A DNA stretch of 64,000 nt from a bacterium. GTDB taxonomy: Bacteria; JAHJDO01. Of the stretch, positions 25,309 through 46,511 are shown one piece after another. Position numbers and translations under genes: made by a program. A model generated the notes under the pieces. It had not been told where the DNA came from. It made no database searches and saw only the letters and a list, made by a program, of their open reading frames with translations. Position 1 is the first letter of the stretch. Every line of letters begins with the position of its first letter. Location of the stretch: assembly GCA_030652805.1 (NCBI GenBank), contig JAUSPT010000032.1, forward strand, positions 109,992 to 173,991. The letters run 5' to 3'.

Positions 25309-25325
25309 TTTTAATTTCTCCTACA

Positions 25326-26311: not shown

Positions 26312-28639
26312 CTATTGCGGAGGTCTAAACTTCTGGATTCTGCTATTGATAAGTTGACGTCTATTTCCAGTATCAGTTACATAAACATATCCTTTTGAGT
26401 CAAAAGCTATGCCGGTTGGTGAATTAAATTGACCGTCACCTCCCCCACGGCTTCCCCACTTAGTTATATAATTGCCGCTTGCATCAAAGACCTGAATCAT
26501 ATTTGCAGCACTAACTACAAACATATAGCCATTATTTATAGCTATTTTTTGCGGCCGCTGCCCAAGTCTACCGAACTTTAATAGAAAATTCCCTGCACTG
26601 TCAAACTTCTGAACATTGCCTAATTTATAATCCAGAGCATACACATTTCCTGATTCATCTGCTGCTACATCCCATATATAGCTAAACTGCGAATTGCCCG
26701 CGCCGCGTTTGCCCCAGGCAGTCAAATAGTTCCCATCTTTATCAAATTTTTGTATTCTGTAATGCCGGGTGTCTGCCACATAAACATTCCCCTCTTTATC
26801 TACTGCCACACCACGGGGTTGGTCAAGTTGACCTTTGCCATGCCCCCGCTTCCCAATGCTTGCAACCAACGTCCCTTCCGGACTAAACTTATTAATGGAA
26901 TATGTGGACATATTACAAATATAAACATTGCCCTCTTTATCAATATCAATATCCATTGGTCTGCCAATATCCTTATTCTGCCAGGCTGCCAAAAGATCCC
27001 CTTTGGGACTGAGTTTAAGGACACTGCTGTTTTGCTTGCCTACTGTATCTATTACATAAATATTATCTGAATTATCAATTGTTATACCCTGAATAAAATT
27101 TATCTGCGTATTCTGGCCAATAACACTATCAAATCTAAACAGTCCTCCTATTGGAATCTTCTTGCCGACAGGCCAAATCACTTTGTCTTTATCTACCTTA
27201 GCTAATTTCTCTTGCTTTTTCTGCTCCTTCTCCTCTACTCGTTCTTTAGGCTTTGCTTTTGCCTGCATTTCTGCTCTAATAATTCCCTCCATGGCAAGAC
27301 GTTTATACTCTCTGGCTTCTATATTGTCAGGAGAAAGCTCCAGAACAGCTTCAAAATTTTCTATGGCTAATTTGTATTCACCGGAATTTTGCGCGCCTAA
27401 GTTGAAATGTATCTTTCCCCTGGTAAGACTTGACTTTATCTTCTCTTCATTTTTCTTTCTCATCTCCACCAATCGCGAATCTTCTGCTTCAAGGACCTTT
27501 TTCTTTTCCGGCTCTTCTTCTTTAGTAACGACAGGTTTCTGCGATTCTATGTCTTTAGCGATTGTTTCTTCTACTTTCTTTTCCGCTGTTTTTACTTTAT
27601 CAATAGTGGACTTTTCAACAACATGCGGAGAAGGAATGTCTTTTTTGCCGGTACTTATTGCTATGTAAATACCAATAATTATAACCACTAACAAAACTGC
27701 TGGAACAATAGCCTTGATTGGTATCTTTGTTTTCTTAACAATATCCTTTGCCATAACAGTGACTCCTGCATCTCCAGGAATAGCTACCGTTTTGCCATCA
27801 GCTGTAGCAGGCTGACGAAGAAGCCTCTTAAGGAGTTGTATAACATCATTCATATCCTGATAACGCTGATTCTTATCTTTTTTCATGCACTTTAATACCA
27901 TTTCTTCTGTTTCAAGAGATATCTTGGGATTTTTAGCGCGCGGGCTGGGAATATCCTCATGCAGGTGTTTATAAGCAGTTGCAAATGGATCCTTGCCTTT
28001 AAAAGGGAGTTCCCCGGCTAACATGCGGTATGAGAGAACTCCAAAAGCATACATATCAGATTTGGAATCAACACCCGTGCCCTTGACCTGCTCAGGGGAC
28101 ATGTATTCCGGAGTTCCTATACTCATCCCTGTTTTGGTTTTAACGCTTGAATCCTGCACTTTGGCAATACCAAAATCCATTACCTTTATACTGCCGTCCG
28201 CTGCAATCATGATATTGCCGGGCTTAACATCGCGGTGAACAACTCCATGCTTATGAGCGTAGGAAAGAGCCATTCCAACCTGCTGCAGGATTTCTAAAGT
28301 AAAATCCAATGGAAGCGCTTTCTTTCTCTTTAACAACTCATCCAGTGTCTCGCCTTCAATGTACTCCATAATAATAAAATAATTGCCTTCCAACTGTTCA
28401 GTATCATATACTTGTATAATATTACGGTGATTCAGCTTGGCCACAGATAAAGCCTCCTGCTTGAACCTTGTTACAAAATCCTTATCTGAGGCTAGATTTT
28501 GAGGCAACATCTTCATAGCTACAGGACGATTAAGAGAAATCTGAATTCCCTTATACACAATCCCCATACCGCCTTCCCCAATCTTTTCTACAATCTTATA
28601 CTTGCCTACAATCTTCCCAACTAAATCTTCTTTTGACAT
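26312..28639 (-). CDS. transmembrane Ser/Thr protein kinase with C-terminal NHL-repeat beta-propeller
   Basis: 775 aa; Hanks kinase motifs (HRDVKPGNIMI, DFGIA, TPEYMSPE); TM helix (VPAVLLVVIIIGIYIAI); TPR-like linker; repeated NHL motifs (GNVYVAD/GNVYALD). Confidence 0.85.
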   Translation of the reverse strand: MSKEDLVGKIVGKYKIVEKIGEGGMGIVYKGIQISLNRPVAMKMLPQNLASDKDFVTRFKQEALSVAKLNHRNIIQVYDTEQLEGNYFIIMEYIEGETLDELLKRKKALPLDFTLEILQQVGMALSYAHKHGVVHRDVKPGNIMIAADGSIKVMDFGIAKVQDSSVKTKTGMSIGTPEYMSPEQVKGTGVDSKSDMYAFGVLSYRMLAGELPFKGKDPFATAYKHLHEDIPSPRAKNPKISLETEEMVLKCMKKDKNQRYQDMNDVIQLLKRLLRQPATADGKTVAIPGDAGVTVMAKDIVKKTKIPIKAIVPAVLLVVIIIGIYIAISTGKKDIPSPHVVEKSTIDKVKTAEKKVEETIAKDIESQKPVVTKEEEPEKKKVLEAEDSRLVEMRKKNEEKIKSSLTRGKIHFNLGAQNSGEYKLAIENFEAVLELSPDNIEAREYKRLAMEGIIRAEMQAKAKPKERVEEKEQKKQEKLAKVDKDKVIWPVGKKIPIGGLFRFDSVIGQNTQINFIQGITIDNSDNIYVIDTVGKQNSSVLKLSPKGDLLAAWQNKDIGRPMDIDIDKEGNVYICNMSTYSINKFSPEGTLVASIGKRGHGKGQLDQPRGVAVDKEGNVYVADTRHYRIQKFDKDGNYLTAWGKRGAGNSQFSYIWDVAADESGNVYALDYKLGNVQKFDSAGNFLLKFGRLGQRPQKIAINNGYMFVVSAANMIQVFDASGNYITKWGSRGGGDGQFNSPTGIAFDSKGYVYVTDTGNRRQLINSRIQKFRPPQ

Positions 28640-28645
28640 AACTAA

Positions 28646-30619
28646 TCACCTATGTTTTTTAATTTGTTTTTTGGCTTTTATGTAATACTCATCGTCAGGA
28701 GACGCAATCTCCAGTACCTGCTTCCATTTTTCTACAGCTCTATTGATATTAATATCCTTAAGAGTGTATCCTTGAATGTATAATTCCCTGGCTTTCTCCT
28801 TTATATGAACCTGAAGCTCGTTAATGTTCTCCAGCGCTTCTTTATGATCAGGCTCTACTGTTAAGACAAACTGAAATTCCAAAAGAGCTTCCTTAAATTT
28901 TTCTTCCTGAACAAAATTCTTGCCTTTCTCCATGTGCTGATGAAGTGTTTCTATTAGATAAGGCCTCACTGTTTTAATATACTGGATAGCCTCTGCATGA
29001 TAGAAATTATCTCTGTCCTGTTCCAGAGAAAGCACCTGCCTCCACTCATCAACAGCTTTCATAAGCTGCTGACTGGCGGAAAAAGACATGCCTCTGTCAA
29101 ATGCCTGAGTAACATCCTTTACTTTATCCAGAAACTCCTGCGCCTCTGTATAATCTTTGTTTATATCTAAGACCATTTGCATTAACTCAATGGCTTGAGA
29201 AGCACTTCCTTTTTGATAGAGTTTCTTTGCCTCGTCAAAAAACTTTTCCGCTTTTTGCAGATCTCCAATCTGAGCTACCAATCTTTTGGCTTCATTGGCA
29301 TATTTAGATTGTGCAGATATTTTTTCTAGTTCTACTAAGGCATTCGCATAATTCCCTTTTTCAAAAAACTCCTTCCCTTTTTCAAAGTGTCTAAGAGACA
29401 GCAGCTTATGTTCAATAAGATTAAGCTTTTCCCTTATATGAGCGTATTCAGGTTTTAAATCGAGTGCATTATTTAACTCTGTCTGCGCTTTAAGGAGTTC
29501 CTCAGCAATGATATACTCATCTGCCAGTTTAAGAGCTTTTTGAATCTGGATTTCTTTCTTGGTCTTGTTAAAGTATTCTATTCCTCTGCTATTCTCAGGA
29601 TCCAGGCTCAATACTCTTTCAAACTGGCGCAGAGCATTTTCCCATTGAGCCTTTTGATAAAGTTCAAGACCTCGTGTAAGGTAGCGAGCAATCTCTTCAT
29701 CACCTCTTGATTTTTCCACATAGATCTGCGCATCAAGATTATCCGGATCCATCTGCAAAACTTTGTTAAAAACTTCAAGCGCTTTGATTTTTTGGTCTGC
29801 TTCGTGTAATTTTTTACCCTGTTTGATGAGATTTGCAACAGTATTATCTGAGACCTCAATTATGCCCCTCTTTTCCGGAGAACGAGTTGGAATAAGACTC
29901 ATGATCAATATAATAGCCAAGATGACGCCAAACCCAATTATTCCTAACCTTATGGGTGTTTTTTTCCATGCCTCCACAAGCAGCCCCGCCTCTGAACATG
30001 ACCCCTCTGTTACAAACTTCAGAACAAATTTCCCAACTTTAATTTCATCTCCTTTAGAGAGCGCTTTTTCCTTGATCTTATTATTATTAACAAAAGTCCC
30101 ATTGCTGCTTCCAAGGTCTGCTATTTTATATTGATTATTCTCCTTCTTAACTATGGCATGTTTTCGAGATACTGTCTCATTTTTAAGAACTATTTTATTT
30201 TCTTCAGCCCTGCCAATAGTCAATTCATCTTCGTCCAACTGATACTCCTCTTTAACTCTCGCCCCTTCCATTAACATCAGTCTATATTTTGGAGACGTAT
30301 AAGACCCGGGTGCCATTCTGGTTTTTTCTCCATCGTCACTTTTTAGTTCTAAACTATATTTCCCGATCTGAACAGTATCTCCTTCATTAATGGTCTCTTT
30401 TTCTATTTGTTCCCCATTTACAAAGACTCCATTGGCAGAGTTCAAATCCTGGATAGTCACATTCTCTGCCTTAATTTCTAATTGGGCATGTTGTCTTGAA
30501 ACACTCTTATCAGGAAGAACTATGCGGTTTCCTTCCTTTCTTCCAATGAGATATACTCCGTCTTCCAAAGATAACTCTTGAACTGATTTTTCGTTTTCTT
30601 TAATGATAAAAAATTTCAT
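28646..30619 (-). CDS. tandem-FHA-domain protein with TM helix and C-terminal TPR repeats
   Basis: 657 aa; two FHA cores (SRQHAQLE…NSANGVFVNG and SRKHAIVK…SSNGTFVNN); TM (IGFGVILAIILIMSLI); long TPR-like region. Confidence 0.8.
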   Translation of the reverse strand: MKFFIIKENEKSVQELSLEDGVYLIGRKEGNRIVLPDKSVSRQHAQLEIKAENVTIQDLNSANGVFVNGEQIEKETINEGDTVQIGKYSLELKSDDGEKTRMAPGSYTSPKYRLMLMEGARVKEEYQLDEDELTIGRAEENKIVLKNETVSRKHAIVKKENNQYKIADLGSSNGTFVNNNKIKEKALSKGDEIKVGKFVLKFVTEGSCSEAGLLVEAWKKTPIRLGIIGFGVILAIILIMSLIPTRSPEKRGIIEVSDNTVANLIKQGKKLHEADQKIKALEVFNKVLQMDPDNLDAQIYVEKSRGDEEIARYLTRGLELYQKAQWENALRQFERVLSLDPENSRGIEYFNKTKKEIQIQKALKLADEYIIAEELLKAQTELNNALDLKPEYAHIREKLNLIEHKLLSLRHFEKGKEFFEKGNYANALVELEKISAQSKYANEAKRLVAQIGDLQKAEKFFDEAKKLYQKGSASQAIELMQMVLDINKDYTEAQEFLDKVKDVTQAFDRGMSFSASQQLMKAVDEWRQVLSLEQDRDNFYHAEAIQYIKTVRPYLIETLHQHMEKGKNFVQEEKFKEALLEFQFVLTVEPDHKEALENINELQVHIKEKARELYIQGYTLKDININRAVEKWKQVLEIASPDDEYYIKAKKQIKKHR

Positions 30620-31674
30620 CTTTTTCCCTCTGCTGATCCTTTTGCTAAATGTTCCTCTACCTGCTTTAGACGTTTTAGCACTGTTTTATGCCTCTCATCC
30701 TTTCTATCAGATATCAAAGCCATACATATTTTGAGCTCTTTTTTAACCTGTTTCCAATCTTTCACACGAATATCCTTTTCAGCTTCAAATTTATGAATGC
30801 GATATTCGCTGTCCAGGTATTCCTTAGCTTCCTTTAGATTCAGGAGCGTCTGATGGAAATAATCCGGCTTTGGCTCCAGATGTCTCTGATAAGCCAGAGA
30901 CTTTTGATATGCTTCAATTGCCTTATAGGTATTCTCATAACTTATCATGCGTTCATTATAAAGAGCTTCCCCGTATTTAAAAGCCTCTTTTGCTTTATCT
31001 CTAATATTCCCAACGGGTTCACCGGTTCCTCTATCAATTTTTTCTATTATCTGTGGTTTTTTAGCACTTGTCTCCCCCTGGCTTTTTTCGGAAGACTTGT
31101 GCCCTGGCAGAAGCACATAAATTAGACCGGATATTACAGCTGCTATGAGTATAATCTTTGTGATGTTTTTTTTAGCATAAGTTGGATTCTTTATATTGGC
31201 GAGGATTTTTTCTTTAGACTTTTGAGCTTTTTGGGAGATACTGGGTTCTGCTAGTACCTTTCTGGAGACAGGGGTAGGCACAGGTTTAATAGCGAAATAC
31301 TCGGTTTTTCCATCTTGCTCAGATATTTCCTCCCCGACTATCGTTGCACTGGTCTCTCCTGATGAATTAACCTGCTCAGGGATTACTTCAAAAGCGAGAC
31401 CAACTCCTCCAACTTCAATTTTATCACGATCCTTCAACTCCTGACGCGATACTTTCCTGTCATTTACCTTTGTGCCATTCTTGCTCTCCAGGTCAACCAA
31501 TATCAGTTTTTCATCTTCTAAAACTATCTTGGCATGATGACGAGAGACCGTATCATTTCCTTCCAATACAATATTATTATCCTGCACTCTTCCAATAGTA
31601 CAGGGTTCATTATCAAACTCAAAACATTCCCCTGCTTTTAACCCGTTCCTTATAGAGACCTTATATCCTGGCAT
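30616..31674 (-). CDS. FHA-domain membrane protein
   Basis: 352 aa; FHA core (SRHHAKIV…SKNGTKVND); TM (ITKIILIAAVISGLIYVLL). Confidence 0.7.
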   Translation of the reverse strand: MPGYKVSIRNGLKAGECFEFDNEPCTIGRVQDNNIVLEGNDTVSRHHAKIVLEDEKLILVDLESKNGTKVNDRKVSRQELKDRDKIEVGGVGLAFEVIPEQVNSSGETSATIVGEEISEQDGKTEYFAIKPVPTPVSRKVLAEPSISQKAQKSKEKILANIKNPTYAKKNITKIILIAAVISGLIYVLLPGHKSSEKSQGETSAKKPQIIEKIDRGTGEPVGNIRDKAKEAFKYGEALYNERMISYENTYKAIEAYQKSLAYQRHLEPKPDYFHQTLLNLKEAKEYLDSEYRIHKFEAEKDIRVKDWKQVKKELKICMALISDRKDERHKTVLKRLKQVEEHLAKGSAEGKR

Positions 31675-32023
31675 TAACCATATCTCCTATACGAACCTGA
31701 GCGCTACTAATGGTGTCAGAGGGAAGTTCCAGCACATGCCGTACGCTTCTTCCTCCAAAAGCCAGCCGAAATGGTTTTAACTGAGATATAGTCTTTACAA
31801 CACAATAATTCTTATCCATAAAAACCACATCAATCGGGAACCTCATAAACCACGTATGTATGGCTTTGCAGTTTTTAATCAGTAATCCCTCTCCAGAATC
31901 AAGTTTAGCGCGTCCAATCAGCCCCTTAGTTCTCATTTGCCATGTATCTGCAACAACCACTCGTTGTCCTAAAATCTGATTATTACCAAAACTGATCACT
32001 ATAGTTGTCTCTCTAGAATCCAC
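31661..32023 (-). CDS. DUF192 (COG1430) family protein, common accessory of Tad loci
   Basis: 120 aa; pattern typical of DUF192 (…TWFMRFPIDVVFMD…). Confidence 0.5.
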   Translation of the reverse strand: MDSRETTIVISFGNNQILGQRVVVADTWQMRTKGLIGRAKLDSGEGLLIKNCKAIHTWFMRFPIDVVFMDKNYCVVKTISQLKPFRLAFGGRSVRHVLELPSDTISSAQVRIGDMVNARI

Positions 32024-32930
32024 CCTGCAAAAGCTTTATAATGATAGGGCCAAAAAGCATTACAAAAACTGCTGGAAAGATAAATCCTACAAGGGGCAGC
32101 AGCATTTTTACCGGCGCCTGCATTGCTGTTTTCTCTGCTATCTGCATCCTCTTGGTCCGCATCTGATCAGATAAGACCCTGAGTATAGGCCCAAGACTTG
32201 TTCCCAGTTGATCTGCCTGTATAAGCGATGTGCAAATAGCAGAAAGATCCGGCATATTAACTCTGTCTGCCATTGCTTTTAAAGCGTCGCGCCTTGTTGA
32301 CCCAAGCTTAATCTGCTGCTGCATGTGAAAAAGCTCCTCTACAAGTGGGCCTGCTTTCATCTTGTCAACCACTTTATTAATAGCTGCTGAGAAATCCAAT
32401 CCTGCCTCTACTGAAAGAGTTATCAAGTCCAGGCTGTAAGGAAGGCCTCTCCAGATCCCTTTATGCCTTTTCTTAATCTGATCCTTCAACCATTGATCAG
32501 GATAGAAATAAGCAAGCATGAACAGGATAATGTAATACCAAGCAATTTCAATAGACAGCATCTTAAGTATTAAAAGCCCGACGATTGGCGCAAGTATTAA
32601 TAGTAATTCTTTTATAGCCAAAAATTCTAGAGCGCTTATAGCTCCTGGATTTCCAGCTGAGGTTAGTTTTTGCGTGATATTATTCTGATATTCTTTAAGC
32701 CCAAACCGCTCGTGCAATTTCGCTAGTTTCCCGACCCATGGCATTAAGAAGCGATATAATGGATAGGTACGCATAAACTTTTCTCTTTTTTTCTCCAGCT
32801 GACCTAACATATCCAGATCTATCGCCTCCTCTTCCTTCTTCTCAAATAACGAGAGTATTCCTGCGCCTATAAAATAGAAAGCTGTAAAAATAAAAATATA
32901 AATTAGTGCTAAAATTATTATACTACCCAT
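32013..32930 (-). CDS. tadC: Flp pilus assembly inner-membrane protein TadC (T2SS-F domain)
   Basis: 305 aa polytopic membrane protein with a T2SS-F domain; follows tadB. Confidence 0.7.
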   Translation of the reverse strand: MGSIIILALIYIFIFTAFYFIGAGILSLFEKKEEEAIDLDMLGQLEKKREKFMRTYPLYRFLMPWVGKLAKLHERFGLKEYQNNITQKLTSAGNPGAISALEFLAIKELLLILAPIVGLLILKMLSIEIAWYYIILFMLAYFYPDQWLKDQIKKRHKGIWRGLPYSLDLITLSVEAGLDFSAAINKVVDKMKAGPLVEELFHMQQQIKLGSTRRDALKAMADRVNMPDLSAICTSLIQADQLGTSLGPILRVLSDQMRTKRMQIAEKTAMQAPVKMLLPLVGFIFPAVFVMLFGPIIIKLLQGGF

Positions 32931-32975
32931 TTTCCCCTTTGTGCCTTTGTGCCTTTGCCACTTTGTTTCTTTATC

Positions 32976-33830
32976 CTAAACATCAATATTAACAATTTTA
33001 TAAATCAGGAATCCACCTATTAGCTCCAGGAAAACAACTGTTGCAAGAAACGCCCAGCCAATAGCAGAAGTAAACATTATCTTCATTGTTGCCGGGTCCA
33101 GAAAATACATTATTATGCCAAGTCCTATAGGAAGCAAACCTACTACCAATCCCTGCATCTTGCCCTGAGATGTGAGCGCAGCAATCTTGCCATGCATTTT
33201 ATCTCTCTCCCTTATTGTATTTGCAATTCTATCAAATATCTCAGAAAGATTACCCCCTAATTGCCTGGAGATATTAATTGAGGTGACAACCAATTCCATC
33301 TGTTCACTGGGCATTCTCTTTCCCAATCTTTTCAACGCTTCTTCCATTGAAACCCCTAACTTAGTAGACCGGATAACCAGACTAAATTCCTGAGACAAAG
33401 GAGCCTCAGATTCCTTAATTAAAAAATCCAGTGCTTGTTGCAGACTTAAACCTGCCTTAAGAGAATTTGACACCGTTGTTAAAGCCCCTGTTAATTGAGT
33501 GTCAAACTTTTTCTTGCGATTCTTCTTTAACTGTCTGAGATAAATTCTTGGCAGAGAGAATCCAACGGCTCCAAATGCTAAGCATATTAGCAAACTATGA
33601 CTGAGCAAGTAACCAACCATTGCCATAACTAGAACACCAAGAATACTAAAATAAGCAATCTTTTCTGCTGGAATAAAAACAAACATCTCATCCAGCTCTT
33701 TTTCAGTTCCTGCAGCTACTTTCTTTTCATACTGTTTAATTCCCTTCTTAAAAGTCTGATAACCTGCCTGCGCCAGTATAAACACTGCTAAAAATGTAAG
33801 CCCAAGTATTAATAGCTCAATTATCTGCAT
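32976..33830 (-). CDS. tadB: Flp pilus assembly inner-membrane protein TadB (T2SS-F domain)
   Basis: 284 aa polytopic membrane protein with a T2SS-F domain; immediately downstream of the CpaF-type ATPase. Confidence 0.7.
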   Translation of the reverse strand: MQIIELLILGLTFLAVFILAQAGYQTFKKGIKQYEKKVAAGTEKELDEMFVFIPAEKIAYFSILGVLVMAMVGYLLSHSLLICLAFGAVGFSLPRIYLRQLKKNRKKKFDTQLTGALTTVSNSLKAGLSLQQALDFLIKESEAPLSQEFSLVIRSTKLGVSMEEALKRLGKRMPSEQMELVVTSINISRQLGGNLSEIFDRIANTIRERDKMHGKIAALTSQGKMQGLVVGLLPIGLGIIMYFLDPATMKIMFTSAIGWAFLATVVFLELIGGFLIYKIVNIDV

Positions 33831-35530
33831 TATTTTCCAGTCCTCTCTTCTTCAAATATCTTCATATCCAGGTGCATTCCCTTTGCTTCCAACTGAGGAA
33901 CAAAACTTGGAATATTGCCAGTAGCTACAAAAGTTCCCTGCACTTTACCATCCTGGCCAATTCCTGTTTGTTTGAAAACAAAAATATCCTGTAAAGTAAT
34001 GACTTCTCCCTCCATGCCTGTAACTTCAGTCACAGCAATAATCCTGCGGCTTCCGTCACTCAAACGAGACTCCTGAATTATTATGTTAATAGCTGAAGAT
34101 ACCTGTTCTCTGATAGCTCGGACAGGCAGATCCATACCTGACATTAAAACCATAGTTTCCAGACGCGAAAGAACATCACGAGGAGAATTGGCATGAGCAG
34201 TAGTAAGAGAGCCATCATGGCCAGTGTTCATAGCCTGAAGCATGTCCAGAGCCTCTCCACCCCTGCATTCTCCTACCACTATTCTATCAGGACGCATACG
34301 AAGAGCATTCTTTACCAGATCTCTAATAGCAATAGCTCCTTTGCCTTCAATATTTGGAGGCCGGGCTTCCAGAGAAACAACATGCTCCTGCGGTAGCTTA
34401 AGCTCTGCAGCATCCTCAATAGTTACTATTCTTTCGTCTTTAGGAATATAGGAAGACACTACATTAAGCAGTGTTGTCTTTCCTGATCCTGTTCCTCCTG
34501 ATATAATAATGTTCTTGCGTGAAAGCACACATATCTCAAGGAACTTCGCAGTATCTTTATTCAATGTTCCAAAACCTATCAAATCATCTATAGTAAAAGG
34601 AGTTTTGGAGAACTTGCGAATAGTTATACTTGGTCCTTTTAGAGCTAGAGGCGGAATGATCGCATTTACTCTGGATCCATCCTTTAATCTTGCATCTACC
34701 AGTGGCATGCTTTCATCTATTCTGCGGCCAATAGGCCCTACTATCCTCTCTATCACAGCCATAACCTGTTCATCGCTGGCAAAGGTTTTCTCGCAGAGCT
34801 GAAGCTTGCCTTTCTTTTCAATATAAATCTGATCCTTTCTGTTAACCATTATTTCTGTTACATCATCATCCTTTAACAGATCCTCCAGAGCTCCCAAACC
34901 CAGCGCTTCATCCAGCACGTCCTTTACCAAATCCTCTATATTCACCCGCTTAGGAATAGAGTCAGCCATTTCCTTAATTATGCCTCTGGTAGCTTTTTCA
35001 GTGCGGCTCCTGACTTCCTGCTCCTTTCCCTTTTCAAATGTTAAACTCTTTAAGTCAATACGCTGAATGAGCTGCTTATGAATTTTGATTCTTATATCAG
35101 AAAGCTGGCTAACCTTCCCTTTAGAAGCTGCTTTATCAGAAGGCATGGATGCAGGCGCTGGTACACGAACTTGTTTTACCTCTGTCTTTTCATCCTCATC
35201 TCTATCTTTTTTAGCTTCCTGCAACAAGCTGCCCTCAGAAATACCTGCATCTTCTAAAACCATGCTCAAGTGCCCTATTTTGACTTCTTCTCCCAGCGGC
35301 CAAAGCTCTTCCTTAGCTATTTTTTTCCCATTAAGATATGTGCCATTGCCACTGTCCAAATCTTTAATATATACCTGATTATCCTTCAGTCTGAGACTGG
35401 TATGATGTCTTGAAGCCCTTGGATCAGAAATCATCAAATCACAGTCTTTCTCCCTGCCAATGGTTACAGCTTCCCCCTCCAATTTAAAAATTCTTTCCTT
35501 ACCTGAAGCTTCTTTAATAACTATTCTCAT
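33830..35530 (-). CDS. CpaF/TadA secretion ATPase with N-terminal FHA domain (fusion)
   Basis: 566 aa; N-terminal FHA ([30 protein letters not shown]), then the CpaF core with Walker [13 protein letters not shown] and the VirB11-type ATPase region. Confidence 0.85.
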
Positions 35531-35533
35531 TCA

Positions 35534-36892
35534 CTATTCTCCCTGCAGTAATTGCATAGCCTTTCCTGTTTTTTGGGCAGGAATAAAGGTCGGAGTAGTA
35601 GGAGTCACCAGAACTATAATCTGTTTCTTCTCCTTTTCTGCCTGCTTCTTGGAAAATAACAGCCCCAGTACTGGAATTTGCCCTATACCAGGAGTGTACT
35701 TTTTGAAATCTGAAGCAAGCACGTCTGTAACACCTGAAAGAATCACTGACTGGCCCGGTTTAATAACTACATCAGACTCAGAACGATAAACCTTAAGTCC
35801 TGTTCTATCCTCGACTGTAGGATCAACCTGACTGACCTCCAGATTGATATGCATAGTTACCTCTCCAAAACTGTCCACCTCCGGCTTAACCTTAAGCAAC
35901 ATTCCATACTTCTTCCATTTAACATCTGCAGAACCACTTCCTGCTACTTTATATCCAATTTCGCCTCCATGTTCAAAAACAGCTTCTCCGCCGCTTAATG
36001 CAGACTGATGCAAAGACTTCCTTATAGTAGCATTCCCCTTAGAATGAGTAAAATTTAATGCCTTGGTCAGGTTATATCCTATATTCCAGCTGGGTCCGGC
36101 TCCCCCTGTACTTGCAAGACCTGCTCCGCCAGCTAATGTGCCTCCAAGCAGATTCATTCCCATATCCTTTCCTGCTACAGCGTTTATTTCTGCAAATTGG
36201 ACATCTACTTCTATCATAACCTTTTTTACTTTTAGAAGATTGATAACGTTTTCAGCAAATGCGCCTGCTATTTTTTCAACCTCCTTGGACTCTTCTTCTC
36301 CCACTACAAAACCTCTCAGAATAACCCTGTTTCCAATAATCTTAACATTCACATTTGGGATCCCGATATTCTTTTTAATTTCCTCTGCCAGAATTTCATT
36401 ATGAATCCCAGTGCGTATCTTCACCAGATTTATTACCTCTGGGTATGCTGCAGCAACTTTTTCTACTCTTTCTTTATCAGAAGCAGTCAAAACGGATCCA
36501 TCAATAACCACTTTACCCCCGACTACCTTGACTTTTATTCCTTCTACATCGCTTAATAACTGACGAACTTCTTCAGCAAACTGCCTTGGGTCTCTTGAAA
36601 TAACATAGATAGCATGGGTAACTTTTTCCTCTTTGCTGTCCCATATAATAAGATCTGTAGTTCCAACTTTTATGCCTGTAATAATTATCTGCTCACCACC
36701 AGCAACCACCTGAACATTAGCTACTTTATCATCTCCAACTGAAACACGCGCCAACTTCTTCACATCCACTACCTGCTGCTGCCCAACAGAAACAGTAATC
36801 GCTTTCTGTCCATAGACAACGCTTCCCATAAATAGTATGCAGATCGCTGCTGTCCATACTCCGACCAATCCTGTCTTTTGCTTAGTGTTCAT
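35534..36892 (-). CDS. cpaC: Flp pilus secretin CpaC/RcpA
   Basis: 452 aa; signal peptide; BON-like N-terminal repeats; secretin C-terminus (…IPVLGLLFSKKQ…IVLVTPT…). Confidence 0.75.
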   Translation of the reverse strand: MNTKQKTGLVGVWTAAICILFMGSVVYGQKAITVSVGQQQVVDVKKLARVSVGDDKVANVQVVAGGEQIIITGIKVGTTDLIIWDSKEEKVTHAIYVISRDPRQFAEEVRQLLSDVEGIKVKVVGGKVVIDGSVLTASDKERVEKVAAAYPEVINLVKIRTGIHNEILAEEIKKNIGIPNVNVKIIGNRVILRGFVVGEEESKEVEKIAGAFAENVINLLKVKKVMIEVDVQFAEINAVAGKDMGMNLLGGTLAGGAGLASTGGAGPSWNIGYNLTKALNFTHSKGNATIRKSLHQSALSGGEAVFEHGGEIGYKVAGSGSADVKWKKYGMLLKVKPEVDSFGEVTMHINLEVSQVDPTVEDRTGLKVYRSESDVVIKPGQSVILSGVTDVLASDFKKYTPGIGQIPVLGLLFSKKQAEKEKKQIIVLVTPTTPTFIPAQKTGKAMQLLQGE

Positions 36893-36919
36893 GTTTTTTC
36901 CTCCTTGTTTTTGTTTTAA

Positions 36920-37750
36920 TCAGAATTGTTCAATAGTTTTAACTCCGCCCTTAATTACTTCCACCTTGATTCTGTCCTGACGCTGGATAGTAAGTTTTTT
37001 AACCTGCTCCAGCTGCAAAATAGAACTCATTGTAATTTTCGGCATGTCTGGTATCACCTCTAAGTCTTCCGGATTGCGCAGAACAAGTGTTATTTTCCCT
37101 CTTGCTTGAGCAAAGATAATCATTTCCGCCTCCTGGAGCGTTAAAGAGAGAGTTACAGTATTATATCCTCTCCTTAGCATTGCTGCTGTAGAGTGCGTTT
37201 CCTCTACATCCACTCTTTTGCGTCCTACTTCCTGCCCTACAGCCAGAACAGTTACATTCTGAAGAAGAGTGAGAGTTGTTATCCCTGCTGCTTTTTCTCC
37301 TTCCACTGTAAAATTTGCAGCAAGATCTACATGATCATTCGGCTGGATATGTCCACCTACCCCTGTTACTTCATCTACAGAAATGGTTACTGCTCTCTCT
37401 TTCTGCCTTATGAGCGGAGATAATCCTTCCATCTTCTCCATCCCAAGACAGAGCCATGTTAACTGCTGACCTTTTTTTAGTAAAAACAACGTCTTCTGAC
37501 CTTGTATTATCTCAATATCATCAGGGTTTAATGCATTGGGATCTTTAAACTTACGAGGCACCTGCGAAATTTCTACCATTCCCTTAGAAATTTTCTCTTT
37601 TGCCTTTATATCCTTTGCTGCTACAAGAACGCTTACCAGCTCCTTTCCCTTAAAAATTGGTCTTGTAACACCTTGAATATAAAAATGCACCATGACTATC
37701 GCTAAAAGACCTAATACAACTCCCATTATTAATGAAGCTTTATTCTGCAT
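36920..37750 (-). CDS. cpaB: Flp pilus assembly protein CpaB/RcpC (SAF domain)
   Basis: 276 aa; N-terminal TM; SAF/RcpC-like periplasmic domain. Confidence 0.65.
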   Translation of the reverse strand: MQNKASLIMGVVLGLLAIVMVHFYIQGVTRPIFKGKELVSVLVAAKDIKAKEKISKGMVEISQVPRKFKDPNALNPDDIEIIQGQKTLFLLKKGQQLTWLCLGMEKMEGLSPLIRQKERAVTISVDEVTGVGGHIQPNDHVDLAANFTVEGEKAAGITTLTLLQNVTVLAVGQEVGRKRVDVEETHSTAAMLRRGYNTVTLSLTLQEAEMIIFAQARGKITLVLRNPEDLEVIPDMPKITMSSILQLEQVKKLTIQRQDRIKVEVIKGGVKTIEQF

Positions 37751-37768
37751 ATCTACCTCCCTTTTTTA

Positions 37769-38527
37769 TTAACTTATTTTAATTATTGTAGCATAGTTAT
37801 TCGTTTTGTCATTATTTTCATCTGGAAAAACAATCAAACATTTTCCATCCTTTTTCTGAGCGCTGAGTAAATCGCCACTATCATCCAGCTTCCACCCATT
37901 CATTTTTAATCGGCTCTGATAAAAGAACTTCTGTGTGGTTGAGGAAGCAAGGCTTTTATACATTAGCACTTTATAATTTACGCCTCCAACTCCAAGCTCA
38001 AAGCTGAGCGCCTCAGAATTTAGCGGGTAGATAGGTATATCCTTGATAAAATCCTCCTCAACATTTGATTCTCTCCATTCCTCAAAACTTAAACAAAAAA
38101 TATGGCTTCCCGAGAGGTTGGTATCCCTCATAGGCAAGACAGCTATGCCAAGACTTGGCGATTTCAATTTTTTAGCCATAATAAACTCACTGCCGCCTAT
38201 ATTCTTCCTGCAATGAAGACCAAAATTTCTCGTTTTCAGGTCATTTGAAAATTGTTTTATTAGTGTTTGAGCGGATAATGGGGAATGGTATATGCCAATT
38301 AAAGCGGGCTTAGAGTTAATCTTCACACGATAAGACTTGCCTGCCATATCTCTCATCATATCCGGAAGATTGAAACGTTTTTGGTTAATCTTATCCTGCA
38401 GTTCATAAATAAGCCCATAAACCTTATCTTGTCGACCGCCCTTTATTAAACCGTAACAACTCAAAGCAATAGTCAAAATAGCTATTAGAAGAACCTTCCC
38501 TGTGATTTTTGTTACTTGCCTTATCAT
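37769..38527 (-). CDS. hypothetical membrane-anchored protein within the Tad locus
   Basis: 252 aa; N-terminal TM (VLLIAILTIALSCYGL); no recognisable motif. Confidence 0.3.
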   Translation of the reverse strand: MIRQVTKITGKVLLIAILTIALSCYGLIKGGRQDKVYGLIYELQDKINQKRFNLPDMMRDMAGKSYRVKINSKPALIGIYHSPLSAQTLIKQFSNDLKTRNFGLHCRKNIGGSEFIMAKKLKSPSLGIAVLPMRDTNLSGSHIFCLSFEEWRESNVEEDFIKDIPIYPLNSEALSFELGVGGVNYKVLMYKSLASSTTQKFFYQSRLKMNGWKLDDSGDLLSAQKKDGKCLIVFPDENNDKTNNYATIIKIS

Positions 38528-39505
38528 TTAGTGCACCATTAGTATCCTATCAAAACCTGTTTTGTCAAATTTTGCCTTGTAGTTTGGATCGGGAAGTATA
38601 TTGAATTTAACTTTGCTTCCGATATGCCCTTTTGTTTTATCTTTATCCTCCTTCCATAAGCTTTCTATCCATGAGAAAATAAGATCAGCACCTTTAGTAA
38701 CTTTAGGAATTTCTCCTCCAAGACTTCCTCCATATGGAACAGCCTTGGCTGTTGTATAAATAGATGGTATATTAATACCCAGAAGAGAGCCGCCTATCAG
38801 GACTGGTTGAGAACCCTTGTAAGCAAGAGAAAAGGTATAGACATCTTCTCCGCCTGTCATAAATCCCAACCAGCCACTGGCGCAAAGAAAATACTTAGCC
38901 CTGTCTACATTTAACCAGCATGGAATTAACGAGGTGAGAGAGCTCCAGCCAAAATTCCCTCCTTTTATATCATCGTAAAAGCTTTTACCGTCATCATAAA
39001 TTCCTTTTACGTCCTCTATACTGCTCATATTTACAAGACGCTCTGCCAAAGCAGTCGGCAGGGGAACAGCTGCATCAGCCTTATTAGCTCTGCCATATGT
39101 AAACACCTGAGTAATAGCAATAACAGGAACAGCATACTTCATAACATCCTGAATGGTTTGGACAATATTAGTAATAGTAAAATTCACATCTCCAGTGAAC
39201 CAGAGTTTAATGAGGTCAATAATAAATGCAGGAACCCATAGAATATTGAGCATTGCTATTACATTAAGTCCCCTTGCCTGCCATACTGCGCCTGCCATAG
39301 CAGCAGAATCAGTTGCATTCTGCATTCTGATGCGCCAGCTTACAAGCTGTCCCACGTCCACAACCAGCATTATGAACATAACCAGCACCAGAAGCATCAG
39401 CGCTGCAAAAACGGCAGCCTGCCCGCCGTTATCTTTTCTGAGCTTATGAATTTGAATAAACATTATAAGAGACTCGCTATTTCCCCTAACTGTTGTTTTA
39501 TCCAC
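38528..39505 (-). CDS. TadG-like putative Flp pilus-assembly protein (Tad_N domain)
   Basis: N-terminus GGQAAVFAALMLLVLVMFIMLVVDVGQL matches the TadE/G-like N-domain. Confidence 0.55.
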   Translation of the reverse strand: MDKTTVRGNSESLIMFIQIHKLRKDNGGQAAVFAALMLLVLVMFIMLVVDVGQLVSWRIRMQNATDSAAMAGAVWQARGLNVIAMLNILWVPAFIIDLIKLWFTGDVNFTITNIVQTIQDVMKYAVPVIAITQVFTYGRANKADAAVPLPTALAERLVNMSSIEDVKGIYDDGKSFYDDIKGGNFGWSSLTSLIPCWLNVDRAKYFLCASGWLGFMTGGEDVYTFSLAYKGSQPVLIGGSLLGINIPSIYTTAKAVPYGGSLGGEIPKVTKGADLIFSWIESLWKEDKDKTKGHIGSKVKFNILPDPNYKAKFDKTGFDRILMVH

Positions 39506-39966
39506 TTGATTATTTCATCCTTGGAGAAGCAGAACCCTAGAAAACGGCAGCTCCCCTTCACTGTAGTTCCTCCACCAAATATGGCTGATAAATAAGGTCC
39601 TGCTGGCACAGTATATGTTACATCCATCTTCGCGCTTCCTTTCGCCATCACATACGAGAGAAAACTTGCAAGGTAATTAGTTCCCGGGATAAAACTCATA
39701 TCCGGGAGCCCTGCTTCTCTTAACAAATCAAAGCTGGTATTGACATTTCCATGACCAAAGAATACAGCACCGGCTCCTCCGCCATCTCTCGTTTCCTTTA
39801 GAGCTCCTTCTCTGGCTGCTATGTAAACCTTTGATTGAGCCACCATAACCTTTCCAAAGTGAACAACAATCATCATAATGAGTATAAAAATCGGCAGGAC
39901 AATTGCTGCTTCTACTGCTGCCTGACCACTGTTAGATCTAATTAGCTTCATTCTAGTCCTCCACAT
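39463..39966 (-). CDS. TadE-like pseudopilin
   Basis: SGQAAVEAAIVLPIFILIMMIV TadE-like N-terminus. Confidence 0.6.
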   Translation of the reverse strand: MWRTRMKLIRSNSGQAAVEAAIVLPIFILIMMIVVHFGKVMVAQSKVYIAAREGALKETRDGGGAGAVFFGHGNVNTSFDLLREAGLPDMSFIPGTNYLASFLSYVMAKGSAKMDVTYTVPAGPYLSAIFGGGTTVKGSCRFLGFCFSKDEIIKWIKQQLGEIASLL

Positions 39967-40456
39967 TTATATTACAGCTTTGAGTAACTGGAAGATAATA
40001 TCTATCGCCATCCTGAATCCCAATTATTCTGCCAACCATGGGCATATTCAGTTTAAACTTGTATTTGACAGTAGTGGTATTACCCGATTGGCTAACTGTA
40101 GTATTAGATTGAGCATAAGAATACTGCTTAATTATTGTTGCTAGGTTCTGTGCCCAATCAGGAATGGGAATTTTTTCAAGAATTTCAGAAATTGCCGAAT
40201 CTAGAACCCCTCCCGAAGATTGACTGGAAATAGGTATCAGCGCAATGCTGGCAGCAAGTTTTGCTTTGTCCGCATCCTGATGCACAGAATATGAACGAGC
40301 TGCTGAAAAGGCAGCATAATTAGTTACTATATTGGCAGTTGCTATCAAAGCAAGCTGCATAATAGCCATGGCAAAGAGAATTAAAACAGGCATAACAATG
40401 ACAAATTCAACCATTGACTGGCCTCTGTTATTTATTCGCCTAAAGCATTTCTTCAT
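39953..40456 (-). CDS. TadE/TadF-like pseudopilin
   Basis: RGQSMVEFVIVMPVLILFAMAIMQ TadE-like N-terminus. Confidence 0.6.
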   Translation of the reverse strand: MKKCFRRINNRGQSMVEFVIVMPVLILFAMAIMQLALIATANIVTNYAAFSAARSYSVHQDADKAKLAASIALIPISSQSSGGVLDSAISEILEKIPIPDWAQNLATIIKQYSYAQSNTTVSQSGNTTTVKYKFKLNMPMVGRIIGIQDGDRYYLPVTQSCNINVED

Positions 40457-40956
40457 CTAAAAATCCATGCAATAAAGGTTCCAACACTCAGAGCCGCTCC
40501 ATAAGGAATCCTTTCACTGTTAGACAGCTTTAAAGCTTCCGTTTTTAACCCGGGCATAATAAAACTCAAAATAAGACGAAAAATATTTTTTAGCCCTCTC
40601 CAGAATGTCCCTTTCCATATCATTACCGCTATTGCCAGTATTCCGCCTGTCAGGATTCCATAAAAACAAGCATTCAAGATAAATGGATACCCTCCAACAG
40701 CTCCAACAGCAGCCATTAATTTAACGTCTCCTCCTCCTACTCCGCCAAAGACAAATACTATGGCAAAAACACAAAACCCAATAGCGAGCCCCAGCATACT
40801 GTTAACCAACCCGCCAACGCCATGATTCCAAACGTTAAGCAACAGCCCTACCGCCACAGCAGGAAAGGTTACACAATTGTATATCTTGTGTGTAATCAAG
40901 TCTGTAACCGCTGATACCAGCAAAAGCAATATTAGTAATATGTCTGAAAATGCCAT
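40453..40956 (-). CDS. tadV: prepilin peptidase CpaA/TadV (A24 family, no methyltransferase domain)
   Basis: 167 aa polytopic membrane protein; A24 pattern (LLLVSAVTDLITHKIYN…). Confidence 0.7.
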   Translation of the reverse strand: MAFSDILLILLLLVSAVTDLITHKIYNCVTFPAVAVGLLLNVWNHGVGGLVNSMLGLAIGFCVFAIVFVFGGVGGGDVKLMAAVGAVGGYPFILNACFYGILTGGILAIAVMIWKGTFWRGLKNIFRLILSFIMPGLKTEALKLSNSERIPYGAALSVGTFIAWIFR

Positions 40957-40964
40957 AAAGTTAA

Positions 40965-41165
40965 TTATTGCGCTGATTCTAAATCATCAGCTGCTTTTTC
41001 AACTTTTGCTGATAACTTGTCTCTAAAATACTGGAACGCAACTATAGCAGCAATGGCTATTAACACCACTATCAGAATATATTCTGTCATGCCCTGCCCT
41101 TCTTCTCCGAATATAATCCCTTTCATTAAGTTTTTAAGCTTCTTCATTTTGTCACCCCCTTTCAT
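40965..41165 (-). CDS. flp: Flp/Fap-family pilin
   Basis: 66 aa; leader then the G|MTEYILIVVLIAIAAIV motif. Confidence 0.75.
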   Translation of the reverse strand: MKGGDKMKKLKNLMKGIIFGEEGQGMTEYILIVVLIAIAAIVAFQYFRDKLSAKVEKAADDLESAQ

Positions 41166-41169
41166 TCAT

Positions 41170-41349
41170 TTATGGAATAGGTAAACTAATAAGACTTGCG
41201 ATTCTATTGTAATAAGTTTTTAGCGCCTTACGAAACATCTCAAAACAACCTGCCAGACAAAGAACAGCTATTACTGTTACAAGAACATACTCTGTCATCG
41301 CTTGCCCTTTTTCGTCCAGCAACAAGTTTTTTAAACTCTGTACAAACAT
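41170..41349 (-). CDS. flp: second Flp-family pilin (59 aa; below the ORF-track length cutoff)
   Basis: Manual translation of the minus strand gives MFVQSLKNLLLDEKGQAMTEYVLVTVIAVLCLAGCFEMFRKALKTYYNRIASLISLPIP, with the G|AMTEY Flp motif. Confidence 0.6.
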   Translation of the reverse strand: MFVQSLKNLLLDEKGQAMTEYVLVTVIAVLCLAGCFEMFRKALKTYYNRIASLISLPIP

Positions 41350-41355: not shown

Positions 41356-42147
41356 CTACCTATAAGCTTCTACCAAAACAACTGTAATGTTATCAACTCC
41401 TCCAGCTTTATTAGCATAGTCTATCATTTCTTCTGCTGCTTTTGAAAGGTTATCTATATGTTTTTTTATAATATCCTCCATTGTCTTTCTTTCCAGCATA
41501 CCGCTCAGCCCATCGGAACATATGAGAAAAATATCTACAGGAACAATATCCTCTTCCTGTAGATCAACCTTGACCTCTTTCTCACTACCCAGAGCCCGTG
41601 TAATAACATTCTTCCAGCGATGCTGTTTGGCTTCCTCTTTCGTTATTACATTCTCTTTAAGTTGCTCATTAACCCATGAATGATCCTCTGTAATCTGCTT
41701 CAGCCTTCCATTTCTCATTAAATACACCCTGCTGTCGCCTACATGCACAACATACCCTTTCGCCTCAGCAATGGATAACCCTGCTATAGTTGTTCCCATT
41801 CCTTTAAGTTCAGGGTTAGAAAATGACATCTCATATATTTTCTTATTAGCAATTCGTACTGCGGTAAGGAGCTTATTAGCCTCAGGCGCTAGTTCTGGGT
41901 TCATCTCAAATGGCCAGGTAATATCATTGTCTTTGGCTGTGCGTTCAATAAAGGCCTTTATTAATTCGATAGATTTGCGACTTGCTACATCACCTGCTGC
42001 ATGCCCACCCATGCCATCAGCTACAAGATAAAGCTTCAGATCATCACTGACCAGAAAGCTATCTTCATTTAGCTTGCGCACTCTGCCTAAATCTGATAAG
42101 CCGTATGCTCTGAACTTCATCTCTAATTTTACTCCTGTAACTGCCAT
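41356..42147 (-). CDS. PP2C-family Ser/Thr protein phosphatase
   Basis: 263 aa; motifs LVADGMGGHAAGDVAS, ICSDGL and GGVDNITVV. Confidence 0.85.
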   Translation of the reverse strand: MAVTGVKLEMKFRAYGLSDLGRVRKLNEDSFLVSDDLKLYLVADGMGGHAAGDVASRKSIELIKAFIERTAKDNDITWPFEMNPELAPEANKLLTAVRIANKKIYEMSFSNPELKGMGTTIAGLSIAEAKGYVVHVGDSRVYLMRNGRLKQITEDHSWVNEQLKENVITKEEAKQHRWKNVITRALGSEKEVKVDLQEEDIVPVDIFLICSDGLSGMLERKTMEDIIKKHIDNLSKAAEEMIDYANKAGGVDNITVVLVEAYR

Positions 42148-42198: not shown

Positions 42199-43629
42199 CT
42201 AGCGCTTGAGCTTTCCGTTTGCTGTTTTGTCTAATCGGGCTACACATAGAAATTCTTTTGGAACCTTATATGAAGCTAATCTCTGATAGCAAAATTTGCG
42301 CACACTATTGATATCAAAATCTGTTTTTGCTTTATTTTGCAGAACGATCATTGCACAGGGAAGCTGCCCATACTGAGGATGGGTAATGCCATACACAAGA
42401 GACTCCTTGATGTCAGGATGCTGATTGAGAACTGATTCCACTTCATAGGGAAAGACTTTCATGCCGGCAAAATTAATGATATGTTTTTCTCTGCCAACAA
42501 GAAACAGAAAGCCTTCTTTATCAAGTCTAGCTAGATCCCCTGTCTTAAACCAGCCGTTATGCAATACCTGCTTTTTACTTTGCCATGGAGAAAAGTATGC
42601 ATCAAACATTCCTTTTCCTTTAAGATAAACTTCACCAATCCCCTTAGCATCAGCATTTACTATTTTCACTTCGTAATCTGGTAGAATTCTGCCTACTGAC
42701 TCTTGCTTCGTTTTATCCTCAGAACAATTGAGAAACGGCAGGCCCACTTCAATAATTCCATACGCTTCAGTCAGTTGAAAACCAAACTTTTTATGAAAAT
42801 CATTTGCTATATCAACAGGCAGCTTTACTGCTGTACACACAGCCATACGGATACGACTTAACATATGGGAAGAAAGCATATCCGATTTTGTCAGCATATG
42901 ATAATGGAAAGGTGAAGCGTATATAAATGTTCCTCTGTGGGTTTTCAATTTCTCAAGCAGTAATTCAGGGAATGCGCGGCTGCAGAGAATAATTGTTGCC
43001 CCACGCCGCAGGAAAAGCAGAATCGTTACTACAAAATGAAAACTCATGGAAAGAACCCATATCACTATATCATTTGAAGTGATATTTAACCCTTTATCTG
43101 CAGCATTGGTTCTTTGAATAATGGCTTCATGGGAAATTACTACTCCTTTGCTTACCCCGGTTGTGCCTGATGAAAACCGGATAAAAGCAGGATTTAATGT
43201 ATAATAATCCGCTGGAACCTGTTTCTTCGCTGCGCGTTGATATAGAAAAAACTTTCTTTCACACACACAATCAGAAAAAATTCGAAGGCTGCCATGTTTG
43301 ATACACCTTTCTTTATTAGAGAGCAAAGCATTCACATCAATTTTTTCCAGTATATCATCAACTTCATACATGGATAACGACGTAGATACTGGAACAATAA
43401 CTGCAGGTAAAGACAGTACAGCCAGACTAATAATAATATAATCAATACTATCTTCACATAGTAATGCTACACGTTGAGCTGGCTGAACTCCATATGACTT
43501 TAATTCATCTGTAAGTTTCTCTACAGAAGCAAACAACTCGCCATAAGAAACCTGTTTATTCCCGTCAATGACAGCAATTTTCTTCTGAAGCTTTTTTGTT
43601 TCGCTCTTTATTACATCTACAATATTCAT
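42199..43629 (-). CDS. AMP-dependent synthetase/ligase (fatty acyl-AMP ligase / acyl-ACP synthetase-like)
   Basis: 476 aa; AMP-binding motif FSSGTTGVSKGVV; no CoA-ligase-type C-terminal extension was examined. Confidence 0.75.
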   Translation of the reverse strand: MNIVDVIKSETKKLQKKIAVIDGNKQVSYGELFASVEKLTDELKSYGVQPAQRVALLCEDSIDYIIISLAVLSLPAVIVPVSTSLSMYEVDDILEKIDVNALLSNKERCIKHGSLRIFSDCVCERKFFLYQRAAKKQVPADYYTLNPAFIRFSSGTTGVSKGVVISHEAIIQRTNAADKGLNITSNDIVIWVLSMSFHFVVTILLFLRRGATIILCSRAFPELLLEKLKTHRGTFIYASPFHYHMLTKSDMLSSHMLSRIRMAVCTAVKLPVDIANDFHKKFGFQLTEAYGIIEVGLPFLNCSEDKTKQESVGRILPDYEVKIVNADAKGIGEVYLKGKGMFDAYFSPWQSKKQVLHNGWFKTGDLARLDKEGFLFLVGREKHIINFAGMKVFPYEVESVLNQHPDIKESLVYGITHPQYGQLPCAMIVLQNKAKTDFDINSVRKFCYQRLASYKVPKEFLCVARLDKTANGKLKR

Positions 43630-46249: not shown

Positions 46250-46250
46250 T

Positions 46251-46496: not shown

Positions 46497-46511
46497 GCAG
46501 CTTGTATCCTT

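Follow-up and report, generated by a model that had tools for sequence, protein, structure and literature searches.

A window of 64,000 nucleotides (64 kb; contig JAUSPT010000032.1, positions 109,992 to 173,991) encodes, at 33830..35530 on the minus strand, a protein of 566 amino acids (aa) in which a forkhead-associated (FHA) domain precedes an ATPase of the CpaF/TadA type. This FHA-CpaF protein is near certainly the motor ATPase of a complete Tad/Flp pilus machine, of the KilF or 'class III' type. Its gene is part of a cluster on the same strand that also encodes a receptor Ser/Thr kinase, a PP2C phosphatase and two further FHA proteins, while no TadZ/CpaE was found with a TadZ profile hidden Markov model (HMM) in the whole window. 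We favour, with a probability of roughly 0.6, a kinase-gated recruitment or activation of the motor that depends on phosphothreonine (pThr), in which the FHA domain docks the motor of this TadZ-less Tad system onto pThr-carrying partners. The fusion itself, which an earlier note on this DNA implied to be new, has already been published as KilF (2021, PMC8460266) and as 'class III' CpaF (2025, PMC12019362).

The open reading frame (ORF) starts with an ATG located 3 nt past the stop codon of the secretin gene, with a GGGAG Shine-Dalgarno-like motif upstream; the stop codon is included in the coordinates. The FHA domain (residues 1-95, 35246..35530) is recognized by Pfam at residues 22-79 (E 2.7e-18, 66.6 bits at a cutoff of 20.7), and residues 4-92 match the FHA domains of GarA, OdhI and Rv1747 in a phmmer search against the PDB (E ~1e-8). 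The canonical pThr-contact residues are kept at their motif positions (G25-R26, S40-R-H-H43 and N62-G63-T64), giving the Gly-Arg, Ser-x-x-His and Asn-Gly residues of a pThr reader. A disordered linker (residues ~96-135, 35126..35245) is followed by a three-helix bundle (residues ~136-210, 34901..35125) and by the CpaF N-terminal domain and C-terminal ATPase domain (residues 211-566, 33833..34900; domain names according to PMC12019362). The CpaF/TadA assignment is based on a T2SSE core (residues 211-486, E 2.9e-62), a Walker A motif (GGTGSGKT, residues 345-352), a His box (438-440, HDG at 438) and the homology to CpaF of C. crescentus (PDB 9e24), whose residues 89-480 align to residues 150-543 of the query (E 2.8e-122). 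The homology to CpaF sets in about 40-55 aa past the FHA domain, in the three-helix bundle (approximately residue 135-150), and the Walker A motif is located about 265 aa beyond the FHA core, a distance given as about 100 aa in the earlier note.

An AlphaFold2 model, calculated with a 73-sequence alignment as input, predicted an FHA beta-sandwich for residues 1-95 (predicted local distance difference test, pLDDT, ~88-95), a disordered segment for residues 97-135 (pLDDT <50) and three helices (133-157, 170-187 and 198-210) forming a bundle that aligns to the three-helix bundle of CpaF, followed by the N-terminal and the ATPase domain. According to this model, the layout is exactly the class III order of FHA domain, intrinsically disordered region (IDR), three-helix bundle, N-terminal domain and C-terminal ATPase domain (FHA-IDR-3HB-NTD-CAD). 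Values below 50 were also obtained for residues 369-400 and 412-442, in the region of the ATPase domain with the highest conservation; these are probably an artefact of modelling an obligate hexamer as a monomer. A specific model for the FHA-CpaF fusion was not found in NCBIfam.

An error near 35200-35250 that joins separate FHA and ATPase genes, as considered in the earlier note, would turn the fusion into a sequencing or assembly artefact. Apart from runs of A6-A7 close to the junction, nothing was found that speaks for such a frameshift. The same operon with a single ORF (565 aa, 96% identical) is present in three independent assemblies, namely the NCBI metagenome-assembled genome GCA_018812485.1 and the Logan assemblies of SRA runs SRR2544004 and SRR27458548. 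A DNA alignment over the junction of FHA domain and linker revealed only one in-frame indel of 3 nt and a number of substitutions, several of them synonymous changes at third positions, which argues that the reading frame is under selection. Moreover, FHA and T2SSE are joined in one protein in almost every one of the 120 top homologs listed, which stem from many phyla, and more than 160 homologs in many phyla have the FHA-CpaF architecture; the nearest named homologs reach an identity of at most ~60%. Together with the published descriptions of the architecture, these results leave an artefact a negligible probability, and it was rejected. All peptides quoted in the earlier note are present in the ORF, and the in-frame fusion it described is fully supported by ORF, Pfam, PDB alignment, independent assemblies, homologs and structure model. 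Two homologs with very high scores of 853-942 bits (P0009, 937 aa, and P0010, 911 aa) are considerably longer and have no annotated FHA domain; their CpaF part may be present in tandem or in another kind of fusion.

The genes between 42147 and 26312 are tightly packed and uniformly oriented, with the phosphatase gene as the first and the kinase gene as the last one. The PP2C-type Ser/Thr phosphatase (41356..42147, Pfam PP2C E 3.2e-14), which is encoded at the same position in a relative (L002), has intact metal-binding motifs (RKLNED, DGMGG, GDSR and DNIT). The receptor Ser/Thr kinase (26312..28639, 775 aa) consists of a Hanks kinase domain (residues 14-261, Pkinase E 5.9e-59) with intact catalytic motifs (GxGxxG, VAMK, HRDVKPGN, DFG and SPE), a juxtamembrane segment with T284 ('DGKTVAIP'), a transmembrane (TM) helix (310-328) and a C-terminal NHL beta-propeller (E 8.8e-24). 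Since the residue following the DFG motif is Ile, the kinase is predicted to prefer Thr (rule in PMC3898841), a preference that would match FHA readers if the rule may be extended to a bacterial kinase. The two additional FHA proteins are a membrane-anchored protein of 352 aa (FHA352, 30616..31674), with an FHA domain at approximately residues 1-97, T124 in the linker ('QDGKTEYF') and a TM helix at 171-189, and a protein of 657 aa (28646..30619), with T100 ('GEKTRMAP') between two FHA domains, a TM helix at 225-243 and a TPR region. The latter is encoded at a position like that of kilD in the Kil system of Myxococcus xanthus. In FHA352, the two-FHA protein and the kinase, hydropathy indicates a single TM helix, located C-terminal to the FHA or kinase domains on the cytoplasmic side. 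This placement assigns the NHL propeller and the TPR regions to the extracytoplasmic side and the FHA and kinase domains to the cytoplasm next to the membrane. Judged from their motifs, a functional kinase and phosphatase would be encoded beside the FHA proteins.

In the mechanism we propose, an envelope or extracellular signal would activate the receptor kinase, which would then phosphorylate Thr residues in disordered cytoplasmic segments of itself and of the FHA proteins. Binding of such a pThr by the FHA domain would bring the motor, which is otherwise cytoplasmic, to the TadB/TadC platform or set it free to act there, and pilus extension and retraction would be switched on. PP2C would reset the system. 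The FHA domain would thus do, under the control of phosphorylation, the recruitment job that the ParA-like TadZ has in other Tad systems. Speaking for this mechanism are the presence of R26, S40, H43 and N62 and the intact motifs of both kinase and PP2C. The predicted Thr preference of the kinase, the placement of FHA and kinase domains at the membrane, the shared motif described next, the survey of neighbouring genes, the docking of a TadZ-TadA fusion and the behaviour of KilF and KilD in M. xanthus point in the same direction.

Candidate sites for the phosphorylation step are provided by the motif [DEG][GE]KT, which may represent a kinase acceptor or an FHA ligand site. Each of the four signalling proteins contains a single copy of it, always in a cytoplasmic disordered segment, i.e. 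at T116 of FHA-CpaF (35183-35185, 'DEKTEV'), T124 of FHA352 (31303-31305), T100 of the two-FHA protein (30320-30322) and T284 of the kinase (27788-27790). Among the 19,654 residues of the long ORFs in the window the motif occurs six times, four of these occurrences being the sites in the signalling proteins. The observed count was reached in 0 of 100,000 shuffles (49 of 20,000 for a loose 'KT' version), a result to be taken as a lead only, because the motif was defined post hoc, after it had been seen. The motif Thr is conserved in close orthologs; that of the two-FHA protein is also kept in distant homologs of the Oligoflexia type, not in those of Myxococcota.

In the earlier note, the linker of FHA-CpaF was described as rich in Ser, Thr and Lys and as a potential phosphorylation substrate itself. 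Seven Lys and five Ser were counted in residues 96-140, but T116 is the only Thr of the linker. Over 118 homologs, linkers are 18-220 aa long, always in frame and rich in Pro, Ala and Glu, with no conservation of the sequence. Thr makes up 3.9% of the linkers compared to 5.6% of the rest of the protein (1.9 observed versus 2.75 expected per linker), and 15 of the 118 linkers are devoid of Thr. As a feature of the family, the linker therefore appears to be a tether and not a substrate, and a 'Ser/Thr-rich linker' as general phosphorylation substrate was rejected; T116 alone was kept as a possibility. This residue lies within 'EKTEV[KR]Q', a stretch retained by P0001-P0008 although indels surround it; outside the close family the position is not conserved. 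An alternative explanation would make the linker the substrate of the kinase, with phosphorylated T116 bound in cis or trans by the protein's own FHA domain, resulting in auto-inhibition or in a phosphorylation-driven clustering of hexamers, a mode proposed for the FHA-linker-FHA module of M. tuberculosis Rv1747. It is favoured by the conservation of T116 in the close family, its fit to the motif of the other three signalling proteins and the FHA domain of Rv1747 among the PDB matches, the Rv1747 linker being reportedly phosphorylated at T152 and T210 (PMC8339232). FHA domains read pThr, though, and the single Thr in a linker of a Thr-depleted family, the lack of conservation of T116 beyond close relatives and a length and sequence varying as freely as those of a passive tether make this explanation improbable. 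It would be compatible with pThr-dependent docking of the motor as an added layer.

The surroundings of other cpaF genes were compared in two samples. The genome sample comprised 80 CpaF loci from representative genomes plus locus L004 (81 in total, 21 FHA-fused and 60 other), while the metagenome sample, serving as replication, comprised 80 loci, among them one close relative of the window locus (L085), and was counted over 21 FHA-fused and 51 other loci. Both are haphazard and capped at the 80 best among the first 600 pattern matches, the neighbourhood was set to 10 kb and home-made HMMs were used, the one for TadZ being derived from 23 ORFs that precede cpaF genes without a fusion. TadZ, as a separate gene product or fused to CpaF, was detected in 1 of 21 FHA-fused loci (a weak match) versus all 60 other loci of the genome sample, and in 0 of 21 versus 44 of 51 loci of the metagenome sample, amounting to 1/42 versus 104/111 for both samples, uncorrected for phylogeny. 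In both samples, TadZ and an FHA-fused CpaF thus hardly ever occur together. In addition, a ParA-type gene is absent from all four further FHA-CpaF loci for which precomputed Pfam annotations were used. These results suggest that the FHA domain replaces TadZ as the motor-recruitment module, i.e. that FHA and TadZ may be alternative solutions to the same job. In the library searched, no paper was found on an alternation of TadZ and FHA or on a test of the FHA domain.

Robust kinase genes within 10 kb were restricted to FHA-fused loci in both samples (3/21 versus 0/60 in genomes, 3/21 versus 0/51 in metagenomes). Kinase matches in L004 and L034 were weak (E ~1e-6) and were left out of these counts; the Pfam table of L004 does not contain a kinase either. 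Additional FHA proteins were encoded near 8 of 21 FHA-fused loci of the genome sample (7 without a match in an overlapping frame in L010) versus 2 of 60 other loci, near 5 of 21 versus 1 of 51 in the metagenome sample and at all four of the further Pfam-annotated loci. A two-FHA protein downstream of FHA-CpaF recurs in L007, L014, L029, L030, L068, L165 and L167, including Kil-like loci of Myxococcaceae and Archangium. Two loci of the Oligoflexia/Bdellovibrio-like type (L022 and L099) encode a TadZ-fused CpaF together with two FHA proteins and a PP2C, and FHA/PP2C signalling is therefore not limited to FHA-fused motors.

In a neighbour-joining tree of the ATPase cores, FHA-fused and TadZ-fused proteins interleave within one half of the tree. 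Neither set was monophyletic in any of 100 bootstrap replicates, and a bootstrap/parsimony count gave at least four switches between FHA and TadZ in 100 of 100 replicates, which is merely suggestive because neighbour-joining noise inflates such counts. In Bdellovibrio bacteriovorus, the TadZ-TadA fusion (TadZA) docks to the polar hub RomR through its TadZ part and linker (bioRxiv 10.64898/2026.07.08.737194), which points to the N-terminal slot as the site of a recruitment module. We tentatively extend this to one large branch of CpaF proteins, where the N-terminus may always be a recruitment module, either the ParA-like TadZ or an FHA domain, that has been exchanged repeatedly, and where FHA-CpaF proteins without TadZ may use pThr docking to position or activate the motor. 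This generalization is somewhat less likely to hold than to fail. If true, the window would be its clearest natural case, with kinase, PP2C, two membrane FHA scaffolds and the shared [DEG][GE]KT motif, including T116, in one operon, and it would specify the 'unknown spatial determinants' through which Kil is said to assemble in the same preprint.

Several results weigh against the pThr-dependent mechanism. Within 10 kb, 36 of the 42 FHA-CpaF loci do not encode a kinase, and all four pThr-contact residues are kept in just 90 of 164 FHA-CpaF proteins. The other 74 (e.g. P0077 and P0118) lack at least one of them, Arg, Ser or Asn being lost in many members from Beta- and Gammaproteobacteria, Lentisphaerae and Kiritimatiellia. 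Proteins with a degenerate FHA domain include those of L030, L126 and L127, each with a kinase nearby, and for at least a part of the family a phosphorylation-independent role is therefore indicated. The missing correction for phylogeny in the survey, the narrow origin of the TadZ HMM (Firmicutes and Chloroflexi), the possibility of a tadZ gene more than 10 kb away and the post hoc definition of the motif count on the same side, as does the fact that the role of the FHA domain in FHA-CpaF is still called a hypothesis in reviews from 2023-2025. An FHA domain acting as a phosphorylation-independent structural or interaction module, comparable to the FHA-like cytoplasmic domain of the inner-ring protein SctD/YscD in type III secretion systems, could tether the motor constitutively to the accessory FHA/TPR proteins or to the platform, with kinase and phosphatase acting elsewhere or on accessory proteins only. 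Besides the degenerate members and the loci without kinase, a Pfam match of the window protein to Yop-YscD_cpl (E 9.3e-17) and the lack of any mention of a kinase in the main text of the Kil paper (PMC8460266) are in line with such a module. On the other hand, the window protein and its close relatives keep the full R/S/H/N set, the genes for kinase, PP2C and three FHA proteins share their orientation within a single compact cluster, part of which is conserved in relatives, and kinases adjoin only FHA-fused cpaF genes in both samples. For the protein of the window, we thus regard a purely structural FHA domain as unlikely and prefer pThr-dependent docking.

The Tad set, encoded co-oriented at 32013-41349, is complete with Flp pilin, prepilin peptidase, TadB/TadC, RcpA, RcpC and minor pilins of the TadE/F/G kind; neither RcpB nor TadD was noticed in the gene cluster. 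Two Flp-type pilins of 59 aa (41170-41349) and 66 aa (40965-41165), both with a prepilin motif of the G/xxxxEY type and a hydrophobic helix, are followed by the prepilin peptidase TadV/CpaA (40453..40956, Peptidase_A24 E 1.9e-17), two TadE-like minor pilins (39953-40456 and 39463-39966) and a TadG-like minor pilin (38528-39505, Pfam Tad/TadE), the three minor pilins being assigned by Pfam TadE and Tad. Between the latter and RcpC/CpaB (36920-37750, Pfam RcpC), a 252-aa protein (37769..38527) is encoded that gave no match in Pfam or NCBIfam. It has a hydrophobic or lipoprotein-like N-terminal segment (TM-like, residues 10-28) and homologs in close relatives only; none was detected among the 81 surveyed genome loci. 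The secretin RcpA/CpaC (35534-36892, Pfam Secretin, pil_N and BON) precedes the motor, and the platform proteins TadB (32976-33830) and TadC (32013-32930), both recognized by Pfam T2SSF, follow it. A DUF192 protein (31661..32023, Pfam) is encoded next. DUF192 (COG1430) follows TadC in 39 of the 81 genome Tad loci with any CpaF architecture and is present in 14 of 21 FHA-fused and 25 of 60 unfused loci; it looks like an unrecognized regular accessory gene of Tad systems.

Directly downstream of the kinase gene (24700-26180), a MutH-like endonuclease and an N4/N6 DNA methyltransferase are encoded. In the relative L001 (96% identical), genes for a DUF1016/YhcG protein, a methyltransferase and a DEAD/ResIII helicase (9621-15328) are inserted between DUF192 and the FHA gene, and the operon site appears to be a hotspot for insertions of restriction-modification or defence genes. 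Upstream of the cluster, a 441-aa protein (44924-46249) without a match in Pfam or NCBIfam is encoded amid genes for AMP-binding, FAD-oxidoreductase and ketoacyl-synthase proteins (42199-48673). A second, separate cluster of the type IV filament/type II secretion-like kind is located on the same strand (14607-22742). It encodes an AAA_22 protein (21930-22742), a secretin with Secretin_N (19416-21314), a PilB/GspE-type ATPase with an MshEN domain (17701-19395), a PilC/GspF platform protein (16487-17698) and a 622-aa ORF with a C-terminal T2SSG pseudopilin domain (14607-16475). An Rfam scan of the window yielded no matches to rRNA or other RNAs.

Among known systems, the cluster resembles the Tad-like Kil prey-killing system of M. 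xanthus, whose KilF is 'fused to an N-terminal FHA domain' (Seef et al. 2021, PMC8460266). NG-KilF is spread through the cytoplasm and gathers in clusters where prey is contacted; the FHA protein KilD, encoded downstream, is required for killing and forms clusters that do not depend on the Tad core (PMC8460266). Both systems have an FHA-fused CpaF-type protein as single ATPase, no TadZ, several accessory FHA proteins, a two-FHA protein encoded close downstream (the position of KilD, as in L014 and L165) and a secretin with the same set of pil_N, BON and Secretin domains. The myxococcotal homologs P0064 and P0117 are 53-56% identical to the window protein, and the Kil-like locus of Archangium (L165) likewise combines an FHA-fused motor and accessory FHA proteins with the lack of TadZ. 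In contrast to Kil, which is encoded in two clusters and reported to lack TadG, RcpB and TadD, all Tad genes of the window are located in one cluster, which includes the TadG-like gene at 38528-39505. Furthermore, KilD is predicted to be cytoplasmic, unlike the two-FHA protein of the window with its TM helix and TPR region, the receptor kinase and PP2C are encoded in cis, neither being described in the main text of the Kil paper, and the host is an uncultured low-GC bacterium. Recruitment of FHA-bearing Tad/Kil motors is an acknowledged question, for which the reviews from 2023-2025 name FHA proteins as 'promising candidates'. What is new in the copy of the window is the matching kinase and phosphatase, placed in the same TadZ-less cluster beside the FHA-motor and its FHA partners. 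Specific and cheap experiments become possible in tractable relatives such as Myxococcus.

Class III CpaF proteins (e.g. E3HIW0 of Achromobacter xylosoxidans), defined as FHA-IDR-CpaF in the 2025 electron cryo-microscopy study (PMC12019362), share the domain order of the window protein according to the AlphaFold2 model and the alignment to C. crescentus CpaF. While class III is mostly found in Betaproteobacteria in that study, members from Myxococcota, Planctomycetota, Kiritimatiellia, Lentisphaerae, Spirochaetes, Gammaproteobacteria and candidate phyla were also found here, and the pThr-contact residues, degenerate in many proteobacterial members, are intact in the window protein. TadZA of B. 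bacteriovorus has in common with FHA-CpaF an N-terminal recruitment module, a flexible linker and the same motor ATPase, the cores of which interleave in the tree; its module is a ParA/MinD-like TadZ that binds RomR without phosphorylation. The M. tuberculosis protein Rv1747 with its kinase PknF (PMC8339232) resembles the window protein in an N-terminal FHA domain and a disordered linker on a nucleotide-driven, membrane-associated machine served by a Hanks kinase. It differs in being an ABC ATPase that has two FHA domains and, in its linker, Thr residues among which sites have been mapped, compared to one FHA domain and one linker Thr in FHA-CpaF. In the H1 type VI secretion system of P. aeruginosa (PpkA, PppA and Fha1), an analogy cited in PMC8460266, a membrane Hanks kinase, a PP2C and an FHA scaffold also accompany an envelope-spanning nanomachine, which is assembled in response to a signal. 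That machine is unrelated to Tad and its FHA protein is separate from the ATPase; the analogy therefore concerns the logic of the system only, not membership.

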